Shown: positions 3,583 through 63,979 of the stretch, one piece after another | Position numbering within the stretch: position 1 is the stretch's first letter | How the letters are laid out: each line of letters starts with the position of its first letter | DNA from: Gammaproteobacteria bacterium | Lineage (GTDB): Bacteria; Pseudomonadota; Gammaproteobacteria; Legionellales; Legionellaceae | DNA length: 64,000 bases | Assembly: GCA_026399205.1 (NCBI GenBank) | Contig: JAPLRL010000035.1 | Location: 15,310 to 79,309 of the forward strand | Direction of reading: 5' to 3' | Made by a program: the position numbers and the translations under genes | The notes under the pieces: generated by a model | The model's database searches: none | Seen by the model: the letters and a program-made list of their open reading frames with translations, nothing else | What the model was told of the DNA's origin: nothing

Positions 3583-4912
3583 CTAAACGCCCTTTTGATA
3601 AAAGGCTCCATTCTGTCTAGAAGCCTTCTTCATCTGATACATGGCTTCATCTGCATGTTCAATAAGTTCTTCAGCTAAAAGACTATCCTCTGAGTATATC
3701 GCGACGCCGATACTTAACTCTATTGGTATAGGGTGCCCCTCAATAGTTAATGTTACCCGCCTTGAGTGCTCTAGAATTTTCGCTACGATTTTCAAGGCTG
3801 CTTCTCTTGAAGCAAGATGCGTCAATAAAACAACAAACTCATCGCCGCCAAAGCGTGAGACAACATCCGATTTACGAACTGTTGATTGCAAAAAATGAGC
3901 TATTTCACATAAAAAAGTATCACCTACCAAATGCCCATATCGATCATTAACCGACTTAAAATGATCGACGTCAATAAATAAAACTGCCATAATCTGTGGG
4001 GATCTTGTTGTAGCTAGAATGAATTGATTTAATTTTTCTATAAAAAATCGTCGGTTGGGCAAATGCGTTAATGAATCATAAAAGGCATAATATTTAATTT
4101 GCTGCTCATTCTTTTTTCTTGCGGTAATATCAGAAAAAACAGCGACATGATATGTATTTTTAATCCATGGATCAGTTAATACAGAAATGTTAATCCACTC
4201 CGCAAAAAACTCACCAGACTTTCTACGATTCCAAATTTCACCTTCCCAAAATCCTTTTTCACTCAAATCTGTCCAGAGTTTTTTATAAAATTCTTGTAAC
4301 TACCCAGGTACGTCATCCTGAGCGTAGCGAAGGATCTCAATTTGACAAAGATCTAGCCAAATTCAGGAGGTCCTTCACTGCGTTCAGGATGACGTTTGTT
4401 CGTTGTGAGTGCTAATAAAACAAACTTATCCACTCCACAACCTGAGGAGTTACAAATTCTTTATCTTGTCTTCCAGAACTCAGTAGGCTAGGATTTTTAC
4501 CATATACCTCATCAAAGGAGTAGCCTGTAATATTCGTATATCCCTTATTAATATAAATAATTTTATTATTCTGATCGGTGATGACCACAGCTTCACGAAT
4601 TTCATTCAATGCCAAATAAACCAATTTAAGCAATTTAGAAACGCGCATTTTTTGACGCAAGGCATAAGCGACTATGAACGTAACCCCAAAAAACAAAAAG
4701 ACAATGAGTCCGCGCATCCAAATTTCATTCCTATTATTAGGAATCAAGCTTTGTTGCATCGACCCTGTATGAAAAACAAAGACATGCAGTAACGATTCAC
4801 CAAGCCAATAAATCATCGCCAAGATCAAACCAACCCCTAGCGTTTTTGTATAATAAAATAACCCTTCTTTGCTATCCGATTTATCTAACATTGGATCTCT
4901 TTGCGATATCAC
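3583..4912 (-). pseudogene. membrane-anchored PAS-GGDEF diguanylate cyclase gene split by a 158-bp MITE insertion
   Basis: ORF 4412..4912 encodes TM helices plus the start of a PAS domain (..ITGYSFDEVYGKNPSLLSSGRQDKEF). ORF 3583..4266 encodes the rest of the PAS domain (GFWEGEIWNRRKSGEFF) and a GGDEF domain (RFGGDEFVVLL); its listed start is a TTG. Removing element 4296..4453 plus one 8-bp repeat copy restores a single 387-aa frame. Confidence 0.85.
4296..4453. mobile_element. C-family MITE, long form (C1), inserted in the PAS-GGDEF gene
   Basis: Termini are GTAAC...GTTAC with identical 8-bp direct repeats AAATTCTT at 4288..4295 and 4454..4461. An internal imperfect inverted repeat is present (GTCATCCTGAGCGTAGCGAAGGATC / GGTCCTTCACTGCGTTCAGGATGAC). 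Its first 138 nt are identical to 50785..50922. Confidence 0.85.
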
Positions 4913-19501: not shown

Positions 19502-20776
19502 CTATGCCAAGTGCGGATCGTCATCCCGAGCGAAGCGAGGGATCTCCTTCAAAGTGGCACAGTGCCGCATCAAGAGATCCCTCGCTTCGCTCGGGATGAC
19601 GTGGCTTTTGGAACAATGCTCATTCTTTGGCCGGATTCCCGCGGATCTATTGACGGGATGAACGAAGAACTCCGCATCATCATCATCCAAAATAGACGCA
19701 ACCCATTGTTTTCGACTTAAAGAAAACAGTGGATTTAGCGTCTCTTCAGCGTCTAATGAACTTATCTCCGGCGAAACCTCTAACTCATCATCAATGAGGT
19801 CATCTAATTTATTCCAACTGCATAACTTATTCCAGAGTTTTTTCACACATTGATCTAGTTTTTCCCCTACGATGGCTAATAGCTTATAGGGAATCAGTAA
19901 AATATAACTTAACCTTGCGAACCCTCGAAAACAAAAGTAAGACGCTAGAACCAAGGTATCCAAAAAAACAGCATTTATTTTTTCAAATTTTCGGAAGAAT
20001 TGGTCTTTGCTTTTACACGAAAAACACGCGAGCAACACATTAAATGGATACTGGCAGAGTATGAACACAACTATCACTAATCCTAGTAAACCATCTCTTA
20101 CTCCCAGCAGCATTGATTTTAAATCAGATAAGATGGCTTTAAATGAGCGATAGGCTGAAAAAAGTTTATCTAAACTGGTTTCAGAAAATTCGTGTTTAAA
20201 TTGATCTCGAATTTTTTGTAATGAAAGAGTCACCGCTTGACCAAAAAAATTCAACACGTCTGCGTTCGGATCAGGGGGCAGAAACGAGTTCATCGCGTTA
20301 TATAAGAAGGTTTCAATATAATCAAAGTAATCAATGTCGTTTAATTGAATTGCTCTTACTGTATAATCAGATGCTTCATCTGGAACCAAGTCATTTTTTT
20401 CCGAATCAGTGACAACTTGAAATAAGAAAAAGTTTTTCTTAACTGATCGAGCGATATGATAAAACACGCTGACGAGACAGCGAACGGGAATAAAAAAAAG
20501 TTCAGTAAGGCCCTTTAGTCCACCATATAATTTAAGCAATAGAAGCAAAAATGGATAATAAAAATGGAGGATCAACATGCTCTTGATTCCCCCGCCCCTA
20601 CTCTCTTTATAAAATACGCATTTTAATAAAAGCACAGGAATAAGCATGAGGGCCAACATGATTAACATCAAACTAGCGCCAATGGTTTTTATCAAGCCCA
20701 TGCCTAGATTTTTCAATGCGTGTAAAAGTTCTCTGGGATGGTCGTAAGGGCCTAATTGCATGTGGTCCGCCTTCAT
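19502..20776 (-). CDS. hypothetical multi-pass membrane protein with an acidic C-terminal region; the tail is translated from repeat C3
   Basis: 424-aa ORF with several hydrophobic segments. The last 33 codons (..HVIPSEARDLLMRHCATLKEIPRFARDDDPHLA) read through repeat 19519..19601. Confidence 0.5.
   Translation of the reverse strand: MKADHMQLGPYDHPRELLHALKNLGMGLIKTIGASLMLIMLALMLIPVLLLKCVFYKESRGGGIKSMLILHFYYPFLLLLLKLYGGLKGLTELFFIPVRCLVSVFYHIARSVKKNFFLFQVVTDSEKNDLVPDEASDYTVRAIQLNDIDYFDYIETFLYNAMNSFLPPDPNADVLNFFGQAVTLSLQKIRDQFKHEFSETSLDKLFSAYRSFKAILSDLKSMLLGVRDGLLGLVIVVFILCQYPFNVLLACFSCKSKDQFFRKFEKINAVFLDTLVLASYFCFRGFARLSYILLIPYKLLAIVGEKLDQCVKKLWNKLCSWNKLDDLIDDELEVSPEISSLDAEETLNPLFSLSRKQWVASILDDDDAEFFVHPVNRSAGIRPKNEHCSKSHVIPSEARDLLMRHCATLKEIPRFARDDDPHLA
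19519..19601. repeat. C-family palindromic repeat (C3)
   Basis: CGTCATCCCGAGCGAAGCGAGGGATCTCC-N25-GAGATCCCTCGCTTCGCTCGGGATGACG. It is translated as the C-terminus of ORF 19502..20776. Confidence 0.85.
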
Positions 20777-40985: not shown

Positions 40986-41551
40986 GCACTCTTCCTGCGG
41001 CACGTCATCCCGAGCGTTCCATGCGTCATCCCGAGCGTAGCGAGGGATCTCCACCCAGTAGCAGGAGATCCCTCGCTACGCTCGGAATGACGTGGAAAAC
41101 GTGCAAGTCATTCGCAATGACCACCGGTTTATTTTTACTCGCCTTTTCCGGCTGGTACTTTGGCAAATCAACCCCACCGCTTTTAAATCAACAGACCCTC
41201 ATGCATCAAGTCGATGCCATCATGACGGATCTCCATTTTTATGAATTTGATGAGCGTGGCCAGCTCAGTAAACACATGGTAGCCGCTAAAATGGAGCACA
41301 TGCCATTTAATAATCAATTTTTTTTGACTCAGGTTATCCTCACGCATCATCAGTCTGAAAATAAAACAAGCATGCATACCGATGCGTTAACCTATCTGCC
41401 CAAAACCGCCCTTGCATTTACCGATTCGCCTGTTATCTTTGAGCAAGCTGAGCAACGCATAGAGTCAAAAGGAATGCAGGCGAATTTAAATACCAATCAA
41501 ATTAAGCTCAATCATGCACGTGCAACTATTAAGCCAAAAGATGAGGCGTAG
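40982..41551 (+). CDS. lptC: LPS export protein LptC, with a repeat-derived N-terminal segment
   Basis: The ATG overlaps the kdsC stop (ATGA). It has a TM anchor (TTGLFLLAFSGWYFG) and an OstA-like body. Codons 8-37 (RHPERSMRHPERSEGSPPSSRRSLATLGMT) are repeat C6. An alternative start at MTTGLF (about 41117) cannot be excluded. Confidence 0.75.
   Translation: MSTLPAARHPERSMRHPERSEGSPPSSRRSLATLGMTWKTCKSFAMTTGLFLLAFSGWYFGKSTPPLLNQQTLMHQVDAIMTDLHFYEFDERGQLSKHMVAAKMEHMPFNNQFFLTQVILTHHQSENKTSMHTDALTYLPKTALAFTDSPVIFEQAEQRIESKGMQANLNTNQIKLNHARATIKPKDEA
41003..41092. repeat. C-family repeat inside the lptC reading frame (C6), 90 nt, left terminus duplicated
   Basis: CGTCATCCCGAGCGTTCCATG + CGTCATCCCGAGCGTAGCGAGGGATCTCC..GGAGATCCCTCGCTACGCTCGGAATGACG. 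The 21-bp duplication encodes RHPERSM. Confidence 0.85.
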
Positions 41552-47848: not shown

Positions 47849-48829
47849 TCAATACAATACATCAAAACACCCTTTTAAGCCATGCAAGTCTTCCATAGAG
47901 CGCACTCGCATTAAGGCATGTTTCCAGCGCTTTGCGTGCGCTTCACCATGCGCCATTGAAAACAAAGGGCGACATAAGCGTGGAAACGGTTCCCCCTCGC
48001 TTGCCTGCTGATAGGCATAATCAAGATAGGTATGAACGACCTCTTTAGGACTCAAAATGGGCGTTTCTGGATGTAACACGCGATGAATATCTGCCAATGC
48101 ATAGGGTTGGCGACACGCTAAACGACCAATCATCACGCCATCGACCTGGGCAAGGTGCGCTTGTACTTTTTCGATGTCATCAACTTGACCATTGATAATC
48201 ACCGGCAACTGCGGAAAGCGTTGTTTTAAAGCATATACATAATCATATTTCAAAGGCGGGGCCGTTCTATTTTGTTTGGGGTTTAGCCCCTTTAACCACG
48301 CAGATCGCGCATGAATAATAAGTTTATCTACACCTGCATCCACCAATTGAGTCGCCAAATTTAAGAAAAAATCTAGGCTATCCCATTCATCAACACCAAT
48401 GCGCATTTTAACGGTCACCGGGATGCGCGCCTCATGTTTCATGGCCGTAATACATGCAGCCACATGATCGCCTTCTTTCATGAGGCAAGCTCCAAAACGG
48501 CCTTGTTGAACTTTTTTACTGGGGCATCCTAAATTTAAATTCACTTCATCAAACCCAATCTCTTGCGCGATGTTCACACTTTCCACCAATCCAGCCAGAT
48601 CAGACCCACCGAGTTGTAAGGCAATTGGGTGTTCTGCGATATCGAAATGAACAGAGGTTTTCTTACGACGCAACACCGCTTGCAAGGGTTCCATTTCGGT
48701 ATAGAGCAAGGCCTGTGGCGCAATTAAACGCATAAGGCGCCGAAAATGCGTGTTGGTCCAATTCACCATCGGTGCAATAGAGAGCGGACAATGTAATACA
48801 GAAGACATAGACTGCATGGATTCAAACAC
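47849..48829 (-). CDS. dusA: tRNA dihydrouridine synthase DusA
   Basis: Shows LSIAPMVNWTNTHFRRLMRL..EVNLNLGCPS..VTVKMRIG..LIIHAR. Confidence 0.85.
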   Translation of the reverse strand: MFESMQSMSSVLHCPLSIAPMVNWTNTHFRRLMRLIAPQALLYTEMEPLQAVLRRKKTSVHFDIAEHPIALQLGGSDLAGLVESVNIAQEIGFDEVNLNLGCPSKKVQQGRFGACLMKEGDHVAACITAMKHEARIPVTVKMRIGVDEWDSLDFFLNLATQLVDAGVDKLIIHARSAWLKGLNPKQNRTAPPLKYDYVYALKQRFPQLPVIINGQVDDIEKVQAHLAQVDGVMIGRLACRQPYALADIHRVLHPETPILSPKEVVHTYLDYAYQQASEGEPFPRLCRPLFSMAHGEAHAKRWKHALMRVRSMEDLHGLKGCFDVLY

Positions 48830-50591
48830 ACGCGACTTGAGCGGAAGCTGGTTCGAAATAATGCACGATTAATTGCAAACGTTCAATACCTTGATACACG
48901 TTCACATCTAATGCATACACAGCATATAATGAACGAATGCGCTCATTAGGCCACAAATCGACATTCACATTAAATGCAATCGCATCAATCAGACGCTCGC
49001 TCCCCTGCGGTTTTAGGGTTAATTTTAAATGTTTTTGCCCGACACGTCGTTGTTGAATAATATGAAACTGCCCTTCAAACAACGGCTCAGGAAATTGTTG
49101 CCCCCAAGGACCAGCGTCTTGAATAAGTTTAGCAATCTCTAGGGTAAGATAATCTGCTTCTAATGGACCATCCACTAACAACTCACCTTGACATTTTTCA
49201 ATGGGCAGATGTTTAGCTACTTCCACTTCAAAACACGTTTTAAACGCCTCAAATTGATTGGGATGTAAACTCATGCCTGCGGCCATGGCATGCCCACCAA
49301 ATTTTCCCATCAGGCCTGGGTTGTCTTGATTGATTTGCGCAAGCACGTCTCTAATATTAACTTCAGACACTGAACGCCCTGAACCCTTTAACTCAGTGTC
49401 ACTGACCTTGGCAAAAATAAAAACAGGCCGGTGATGCATTTCTTTCAAGCGACCCGCTAAAATGCCAATCACCCCTTGATGCCAACTGGGATCTTGTAAA
49501 CAAAGCCCTGCGGGTAAATGAGTATGATTAAATTGCTGGGTAATTGCCTGTAAGGCAAGATTAGCTTGCATACGCATGTCTTGTTCGATGAGGCGGCGTT
49601 CATCATTGAGTTGGTCAAGCTGAGCGGCTAACACTTGTGCCTCGCTATATGTTTCACTCAATAAACAAGAGATGCCAACCGACATATCATCCAAGCGCCC
49701 CGCCGCATTTAAACGCGGCGCAATTGCAAACCCAAAATCACTGGCACGTAAATGCCGCATGGTTTTTAAAGCAACTTCAATGAGGGCTTGAATACCGGGC
49801 CTGACTAACCCCTGACGTACACGACGAATCCCTTGAGCGACCAAAATACGGTTATGACTATCGAGTGGAACCACATCAGCAACAGTCCCTAAGGCCACTA
49901 AATCAAGAAACTGCGCCATATTGGGGCATTCAATTTGAGATTCGTTAAACCAGCCACTGTCTTGTAAACGCCTACGTAACGCCAACATGACATAAAAAAT
50001 CACGCCAACACCTGCCATACATTTACTAGGAAACGCATCGCCGACTTGATTAGGGTTCACAATGGCACACGCATCAGGCAATTGTTCACCTGGTAAATGA
50101 TGGTCAGTAATCACGACATCCATCCCCAGTGAATTGGCATGAAGCACGCCTTCTACACTCGAAATCCCATTATCGACAGTAATCAAGAGCTTCGGGTGCG
50201 TTGTTGCCGCTAAATCAACCAGGGGCGGCGTTAATCCATAACCATAGACAAATCGATTAGGCACTAAAAACGAGACGTGCTTCGCCCCCATTTTTCGTAA
50301 AGCAGATACCGCCAACGTGGTTGACGTTGCACCATCAGCATCAAAATCGCCAACAATCATAATATGTTGCTTGTCACGGAGGGCAAGCTCAATACGCGCC
50401 ACAGCTTTATCGATACCCATAAGGGAATCAAACGGCAAGAGTCTTTTTAAATCAGTATCGATGTCTTGAGGTTGCGTCACCCCTCTTGCGGCGTAAATTC
50501 GACGCAAAACTGGGTGTAACATGGAGAGTTGAGAAAGATCCTGTGGTACGGGTCTTTTTTTTATTTGAACCACGGTAGTCCTTAAAGACAT
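48822..50591 (-). CDS. recJ: single-stranded-DNA-specific exonuclease RecJ
   Basis: DHH motifs (IMIVGDFDADGATS, TVDNGIS, VITDHH) and a DHHA1 motif (GGHAMAAG) are present. Confidence 0.9.
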   Translation of the reverse strand: MSLRTTVVQIKKRPVPQDLSQLSMLHPVLRRIYAARGVTQPQDIDTDLKRLLPFDSLMGIDKAVARIELALRDKQHIMIVGDFDADGATSTTLAVSALRKMGAKHVSFLVPNRFVYGYGLTPPLVDLAATTHPKLLITVDNGISSVEGVLHANSLGMDVVITDHHLPGEQLPDACAIVNPNQVGDAFPSKCMAGVGVIFYVMLALRRRLQDSGWFNESQIECPNMAQFLDLVALGTVADVVPLDSHNRILVAQGIRRVRQGLVRPGIQALIEVALKTMRHLRASDFGFAIAPRLNAAGRLDDMSVGISCLLSETYSEAQVLAAQLDQLNDERRLIEQDMRMQANLALQAITQQFNHTHLPAGLCLQDPSWHQGVIGILAGRLKEMHHRPVFIFAKVSDTELKGSGRSVSEVNIRDVLAQINQDNPGLMGKFGGHAMAAGMSLHPNQFEAFKTCFEVEVAKHLPIEKCQGELLVDGPLEADYLTLEIAKLIQDAGPWGQQFPEPLFEGQFHIIQQRRVGQKHLKLTLKPQGSERLIDAIAFNVNVDLWPNERIRSLYAVYALDVNVYQGIERLQLIVHYFEPASAQVACV

Positions 50592-50784
50592 ATTGAAGCG
50601 AATGGGGATGAGTTTAACGTATTGTGGGAAATGGTTCTAGGTTAACGCTCGAATACCAATAAACACTCGAATACCCCCAAACTTCTTCCATAAAACAGTC
50701 TCAACAGCATGCTCCTCTGTGACCGACTCTACTGTTGTATTCAAACGCCTGACCAAGTGTGTTATGATTATAACAAAAAAAAAT

Positions 50785-50922
50785 GTAACTACCCAGGTAC
50801 GTCATCCTGAGCGTAGCGAAGGATCTCAATTTGACAAAGATCTAGCCAAATTCAGGAGGTCCTTCACTGCGTTCAGGATGACGTTTGTTCGTTGTGAGTG
50901 CTAATAAAACAAACTTATCCAC
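50785..50922. mobile_element. C-family MITE, long form (C7); right end diverged or truncated
   Basis: Identical base for base to 4296..4433 by my side-by-side reading. It diverges after ..CTTATCCAC. It lies immediately upstream of the Mth938-like gene. Confidence 0.8.
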
Positions 50923-50932
50923 ACACATCAGG

Positions 50933-63724: not shown

Positions 63725-63833
63725 AAGGGTGTTTATTTTATAATTTGTAAGACTAAATAAATTCTACGTGAATTTATTTTGATCTTCAATGCTAAACACG
63801 GCTGTCGCATTATAATTTGATCAATCTGCTGTA

Positions 63834-63855
63834 GTAGGTTGGGCCTTGGCCCAAC
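63834..63855. repeat. B-family solo arm (B5)
   Basis: GTAGGTTGGGCCTTGGCCCAAC, 2 bp upstream of the left target duplication of C10 (10 bp upstream of the element itself). Confidence 0.7.
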
Positions 63856-63865
63856 AATCTGATTA

Positions 63866-63979
63866 GTAACTCCCCACGTCATCCTGAGCGCCAGCGAAGG
63901 ATCTCCTGCTAATTAGCACATTGCTAGCTAGGGGGGATCCTTCGCTGGCGCTCAGGATGACGTGTACCTGGGTAGTTAC
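63866..63979. mobile_element. C-family MITE, short palindromic form (C10)
   Basis: GTAACTCCCCACGTCATCCTGAGCGCCAGCGAAGGATC ... GATCCTTCGCTGGCGCTCAGGATGACGTGTACCTGGGTAGTTAC. It is flanked by identical 8-bp direct repeats TCTGATTA (63858..63865 and 63980..63987). Confidence 0.85.

Follow-up and report, generated by a model that had tools for sequence, protein, structure and literature searches.

Non-coding elements with the termini of a resident IS66-family, ISBst12-like element, and their probable recent expansion in an uncultured Legionellaceae bacterium

Long and 114-bp MITE copies in the window

The stretch of DNA that we analyzed (64,000 nucleotides; hereafter the window) is part of contig C44 of a 99.98%-complete assembly of 2.32 Mb, with 86 contigs and 44% G+C. 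This assembly is a MAG whose contigs break at repeats. The RecJ protein of the host shows 59-63% identity with the RecJ of Legionella species and of Legionellaceae MAGs, and we therefore regard the host as an uncultured, deep-branching Legionellaceae bacterium. Three copies of a repeat family, termed C in an initial annotation of this DNA, are central to the present analysis. They are listed here with their target duplications and with the genes on either side of the second copy.

4288..4295, no strand, left target duplication of copy 1, 8 bp, AAATTCTT
4296..4453, plus strand, copy 1, complete long-C MITE of 158 bp, longer than the 153-bp consensus by an internal TCCAC duplication
4454..4461, no strand, right target duplication of copy 1, 8 bp, AAATTCTT
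48822..50591, minus strand, recJ
50785..50922, plus strand, copy 2 of the long-C MITE, positions 1-138 only, 100% identical to copy 1
50933 onwards, start of a 125-aa ORF
63858..63865, no strand, left target duplication of the 114-bp MITE, 8 bp, TCTGATTA
63866..63979, plus strand, 114-bp MITE of the C10 type, one of 16 identical copies in the genome
63980..63987, no strand, right target duplication of the 114-bp MITE, 8 bp, TCTGATTA

The initial annotation described 4296..4433 and 50785..50922 as the same 138-bp element, base for base. The identity is correct (138/138, or 139 when the preceding T is included), and the window has two occurrences of the 23-nt left terminus GTAACTACCCAGGTACGTCATCC, with 0 expected from shuffled sequences. 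The length did not stand: an alignment of all genome copies together with their flanks gave a family consensus of 153 bp, which starts with GTAACTACCCAGGTACGTCATCC and finishes ..CCACAACCTGAGGAGTTAC / ...ATCCACAACCTGAGGAGTTAC / ... CTTATCCACAACCTGAGGAGTTAC. This 153-bp element consists of an outer inverted repeat (positions 1-14 and 140-153, 12/14 pairs) and an inner hairpin (positions 15-43 and 70-100). The 114-bp element forms a second subfamily, ~77% identical to the long one across 100 shared nt; as single-stranded DNA, it gives an almost perfect hairpin (-50.7 kcal/mol, z = -11.9). The elements are non-coding, 114-158 bp in length, and bounded by inverted termini that match a resident IS, i.e. 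they have the defining properties of MITEs.

Copy 1 begins GTAACTACCCAGG.., ends ..CCTGAGGAGTTAC, carries its internal 5-bp TCCAC duplication close to the right end, and interrupts a gene. When the MITE and one AAATTCTT are removed, the remaining sequence aligns without gaps to the orthologous gene of a relative (G020), which thus provides an empty site. Such evidence was obtained for this one site and not for the copies at 50785 or 63866; at 50785, DNA comparison found none, as the divergence of the flanks was too great even against a genome from the same genus. The copy at 63866..63979 begins with GTAAC, finishes with GTTAC, and has a perfect TCTGATTA duplication on both sides, all as initially annotated. 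Over its left 19 nt, GTAACTCCCCACGTCATCC, it matches the terminus of a resident IS66-family element exactly. A further repeat, with the palindrome TTGGGCCAAGGCCCAA, adjoins MITEs at two loci (window 63800..63857 and G000 C6:18040-18100).

Copy 2 is flanked by AAAAAAAT on the left and ACACATCA on the right. It is devoid of the last 15 nt of the element, of the GTTAC terminus, and of a target duplication, so that, taken alone, it does not demonstrate a complete transposition event; a possible decayed remnant of the right end (8/10 nt) reaches ~50933. The copy occupies the intergenic sequence from which recJ and the 125-aa ORF diverge. In G001, a genome of the same genus, protein synteny shows recJ and the ORF separated by a short spacer that contains no MITE. 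A gene of ~280 aa sits between recJ and the 125-aa ORF in three other genera (50592..50932 compared with L099-L102) and is absent from this genus (G000, G001); the enlarged spacer of G000 holds the truncated MITE. Most of the other C copies of the window (e.g. 19519..19601, 41003..41092, and 59576..) are hairpins without GTAAC termini, and several of them are located within genes.

Genome-wide copies and the resident IS66-family element

Termini of the type GTAAC..ACGTCATCC were found 161 times in the genome. The 114-bp type is represented by 30 full-length copies, 16 of which are 100% identical, the others tailing off to 74%; the identity between copies could be somewhat inflated by the short-read MAG assembly. 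The long type has 13 full-length copies, 9 of them with perfect duplications, and 5 more with small lesions at the right end that keep a perfect 8-bp duplication. The initial annotation had named a lack of 8-bp duplications at other C copies as evidence that would speak against mobility; we found perfect ones at 22 of the 30 114-bp copies and at 14 long copies in total. All 36 differ from each other in sequence, with an AT-rich centre (75% A+T), and the chance of a perfect 8-bp match is ~6e-5 per site even at 72% A+T. At two loci, a long-C and a 114-bp MITE stand in tandem with one target sequence present three times (C60:3361-3635, ATAAATTG; C13:146852-147155, GATGTTC(G)), indicating repeated insertion at the same 8-bp site.

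Of 60 genomes sampled from the same GTDB family, 22 contain these repeats. Their full-length matches do not exceed ~80% identity, and the few copies present in the same-genus genome G001 are 72-78% identical. Given this ceiling, the identical copies represent a lineage-specific expansion, and the spike that they form points to a recent burst.

An IS66-like element with matching termini elsewhere in the genome had been predicted as the driver of the family. A profile search retrieved PF03050 (DDE_Tnp_IS66) with 126.9 bits at C14:10996-11730, along with a further fragment match on contig C42, and the predicted element was identified both on contig C14 and as a multi-copy variant.

C14:9826-12244, IS66-family element comprising IRL, transposase gene (split), GIY-YIG ORF, and IRR

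The IRL of this element reads GTAACTCCCCAGGTACGTCATCCCGAGCG.. / GTAACTCCCCAGGTACGTCATCCCGAGCGCAGCGAGGGATCTCC and its IRR ..GGGATGACGTGGGGAGTTAC. The N-terminal portion of its transposase comprises DUF6444 and zf-IS66, and the C-terminal portion contains DDE_Tnp_IS66. Three MITEs that form a 497-bp nest (C14:10489-11001), with AGCTTTTT flanking, interrupt the gene between these portions, which are otherwise stop-free and jointly account for residues 1 to 463 of an intact relative. A 96-aa GIY-YIG nuclease ORF (PF01541, 64 bits; C14:11881-12171), situated between the transposase gene and the IRR, is conserved in two other Legionellales (L035:3872-4162, and the L036 element from position 1549).

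The second IS variant shares ~90% identity with the C14 copy where its ends are assembled and has perfect 40-bp inverted repeats, GTAACTCCCCACGTCATCCCGAGCGCAGCGAGGGATCTCC, which start with GTAACTCCCCACGTCATCC. We found 4 IRL and 8 IRR ends of this variant, all identical and ~140 bp from contig ends, corresponding to at least 8 copies, and it is the main reason for the fragmentation of the assembly. Pairs of contig ends share IS-flanking 8-bp duplications, namely AGCAGGCA (C8/C12) and TTTTTTGT (C38/C50). A third variant, ~68% identical, is located at the ends of contigs C3 and C63. None of the assembled contigs contains an intact transposase gene, the multi-copy IS being visible only as ~140 bp per end.

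The three-gene organization (TnpA/B/C) that had been considered does not apply, since the genome has neither TnpA nor TnpB, with no match to TnpB_IS66 (PF05717). This absence, together with relatives that carry only a transposase and a GIY-YIG ORF, places the element in the single-ORF ISBst12-like group rather than with the canonical tnpA-tnpB-tnpC IS66. Complete relatives are available from two other Legionellales. The L035 element (1913 bp, duplication AAAACTGA) has the GIY-YIG ORF and an intact transposase of 464 aa, for which NF033517 gives 286 bits (cut-off 180), and its repeats start with GTAACTCCCCAGGTACGTCATCC and are of the type found at the left end of the long C element; the L036 element is 1897 bp long, with the duplication CAAGTTCT. 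The left end of the long MITE matches the IRL type of both the C14 and the L035 elements. The inner repeats of the MITEs (CCTGAGCG..CGAAGGATC) and those of the resident IS (CCCGAGCG..CGAGGGATC) differ at 4-5 positions; this counts against cross-mobilization, which is therefore probable only.

MITEs have inserted into IS66 transposase genes in at least two cases, i.e. the C14 nest and C31:3-339 with C42:34405-34839, so these non-autonomous elements disrupt their own likely drivers. In the second case, the gene hit is another IS66 transposase gene; the long-C copy inserted there, which has TGCTAAAG, shows mismatched flanks split between contigs C31 and C42. The swapped TGCTAAAG flanks may result from recombination between copies or from a mis-join.

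Taken together, we consider it very probable (about 90%) that the 114- and 153-bp elements are non-coding MITEs that carry the terminal repeats of a resident IS66-family, ISBst12-like element and have expanded recently. Judging from the sequences, the DDE transposase encoded by the IS, acting in trans, most likely recognizes the shared outer terminus GTAACT[A/C]CCC..ACGTCATCC. Insertion would take place at AT-rich targets through an 8-bp staggered cut, giving rise to the 8-bp duplication. The copy at 50785 most likely lost its right terminus and duplication through a secondary deletion at a hot spot (positions 137-141, see below). The shared termini, the 8-bp duplications on both MITEs and IS, the one empty site, the copy numbers, and the IS66 domains are direct observations; the IS variant that supplies the transposase, continuing activity, and a copy-and-paste mode are what we infer.

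Altered right ends and an IS110-type element within the MITEs

The right ends of the long-C copies are frequently rearranged. Among 36 such ends, 19 are canonical and 17 are altered within positions 134-152; positions 1-132 are almost invariant. Four ends have small tandem duplications beside positions 134-141. Six have internal deletions of 3-14 bp, all across positions 142-144, that spare the final few bases and leave a perfect duplication. The remaining seven, including the copy at 50785..50922, are truncated at positions 137-141 and have no duplication. Two right ends of the window belong to this set:

4429..4453, right end of copy 1
50918..50932, right end of copy 2

The breakpoints are located where the outer stem meets the remaining hairpin. 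Each of the four copies of one sub-lineage (TTTTTCAC) has its own distinct right-end lesion. In addition, the left 14-17 nt are missing from 6 further copies, and the right 14 nt from one 114-bp copy.

Structure-mediated slippage or mis-processing of an atypical end is, in our view, the most likely candidate for the origin of the right-end lesions. We also considered the possibility that loss of the outer 13-17-nt module and the lesions at 134-152 form one mechanism-linked process that turns active IS66 MITEs into immobile REP-like hairpins; we regard this as rather unlikely. Hairpin-junction processing, mis-cleavage of the atypical right end, or the IS-borne GIY-YIG nuclease may be routes for such a loss. 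Two other explanations were rejected. The truncated copies are not the left ends of larger composites, as no matching right end with duplication was found within 8 kb or genome-wide. A CCTNAGG restriction system (the site CCTGAGG spans positions 141-147) is not the cause either, as the genome shows no avoidance of this sequence (observed/expected 1.09, rank 56/64).

A second unassembled IS sits in MITEs of both subtypes, exactly at CGAAGGAT^(GAT)CTC (position 40/41). Its junctions, 4 left and 5 right, are all at contig ends (C1, C2, C57, C60, C64, C67, C70, and C84 of G000), and it was compared with IS110-type relatives in L004, L006, L009, and L010. In relatives, the sequence preceding a 320-aa IS110-family recombinase matches the 5' region of this IS with 79-86% identity. 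An internal deletion of this IS could in principle have generated the MITEs; we rejected it as their parent since the same ends occur in two subtypes at the same motif, CGAAGGAT^CTC, and since the homologue in G004 encodes an IS110-family recombinase. The same two facts identify it as an IS110-type element that inserted into the MITEs. None of 169 GCGAGGGATCTC sites is occupied, and 115 GCGAAGGATCTC sites are still free.

The 5' non-coding region of the IS110-type element includes GTCGAAGGATTGG, which is a copy of the left flank of the target, and in G004 the matching segment of one copy is GGGGGGAT, the target flank of a sister copy. Such a flank-copy segment, varying in step with the target, suggests bridge-RNA-like guidance. 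Scanned against Rfam, the ends of the IS110-type element yielded nothing beyond hairpin noise below the threshold.

Alternative explanations and relation to known systems

A first alternative is that the MITEs are old immobile relics whose identity results from gene conversion or short-read repeat collapse rather than from recent transposition. The assembly is a MAG in 86 contigs that breaks at repeats, several internally 100% identical copies are without an end or a duplication, as conversion of old copies would give, and no intact transposase is present among the assembled contigs. These features are compatible with relics, but in old insertions the 22 and 14 perfect 8-bp duplications would have decayed. 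Moreover, G001, of the same genus, contains few copies and these are 72-78% identical, the MITE nest on C14 breaks an otherwise stop-free IS66 transposase frame, and at least 8 IS ends are identical. Gene conversion or assembler homogenization may apply to individual copies and leaves the 36 intact duplications unexplained; as an account of the family, we hold the relic explanation to be improbable.

The repeats might otherwise be CGTC-tagged REP/REPIN palindromes moved by a RAYT (Y1 transposase). The inner hairpin does start with CGTC (ACGTCATCC..GGATGACGT), like CGTC-tagged REPs (PMC3733652). The genome has 7 Y1_Tnp matches and many of the window copies are without GTAAC termini, yet none of the Y1_Tnp genes is flanked by C repeats, the only nearby copy being one ordinary MITE with its own duplication (C21). 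The complete copies carry GTAAC/GTTAC inverted termini with 8-bp duplications, which, to our knowledge, are no feature of REPs or REPINs, and the entire 40-bp arm is the inverted repeat of an IS66 element. This origin therefore seems very improbable. Y1_Tnp (IS200/RAYT-like) genes or fragments are found at C4:1269-1595, C26:25745-26016, C72:47248-47538, C58:26515-26736, and C21:6882-7073; they are possible drivers of the palindrome families A and B of the window, not of the C family.

Families other than IS66 also generate 8-bp duplications, but mobilization by one of them (ISL3, IS256, hAT-like) is scarcely credible, because the termini are identical across 19-40 nt to an element encoding an IS66-family transposase and because an unsystematic look across transposase families revealed no other candidate with these ends.

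The IS66-family parentage that we favor can be compared with three described systems. ISDge4 of Deinococcus geothermalis, a member of the ISBst12 group whose transposition was shown experimentally, is bounded by the inverted repeats GTAACTGCTCAGCA, with a direct repeat of 8 bp (PMC12898284). As in ISDge4 and its group, the elements described here have one transposase ORF of ~450-465 aa with an IS66 DDE domain, no TnpA/TnpB, inverted repeats starting GTAACT.C.CAG, and an 8-bp direct repeat. Unlike ISDge4, they have 40-bp inverted repeats (~55 bp counting imperfect matches) with a CGTC-type palindrome arm and a 96-aa GIY-YIG ORF before the IRR, and they have spawned large MITE families.

QMITE2 of Coxiella burnetii is a MITE of ~150-190 bp with variable direct repeats of 7-11 nt and a long hairpin whose stem is a specific insertion target of an IS110/IS1111-family element; it exists in full-length and terminus-less 'small' forms, carries a GTAG-type REP, has no identified parent IS, and is apparently inactive and fixed between strains (PMC5896051; review PMC10969869). 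The family described here is likewise a hairpin MITE of a Legionellales host, with full-length and terminus-less forms and an IS110-family element that targets it, although the likeness is architectural only: its hairpin is of the CGTC type, an IS66 parent is identified, and the copies look recent. An example of a classical bacterial MITE with an identified parent IS is MITEPsy1 with ISPsy2, which is IS5-like and has a 4-nt duplication (PMC3189936). As in that pair, the elements are short and non-coding and have inverted repeats and duplication length in common with a resident IS; here, the parent is an IS66 element, the duplication is 8 bp, and mobility in trans is probable from the shared ends.

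In summary, the repeat family that is most abundant in this uncultured Legionellaceae genome can be assigned a parent element and a likely mode of mobilization. General understanding of IS66 or MITE biology is unchanged, as this is a clean but ordinary MITE family with its parent. The findings account for the breakage of the assembly into 86 contigs, and the 8-bp duplications and identical copies can serve in practice to recognize recently disrupted genes, such as the one at 4296, and strain-level rearrangement. After QMITE2, this is the second MITE of the Legionellales with a hairpin that serves as a landing pad for an IS110-family element, and here a likely driver of the MITE itself is known. 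If end loss were indeed linked to the mechanism, it would constitute a direct route from MITEs to REP-like palindromes in the Legionellales, including the in-frame hairpins within genes.
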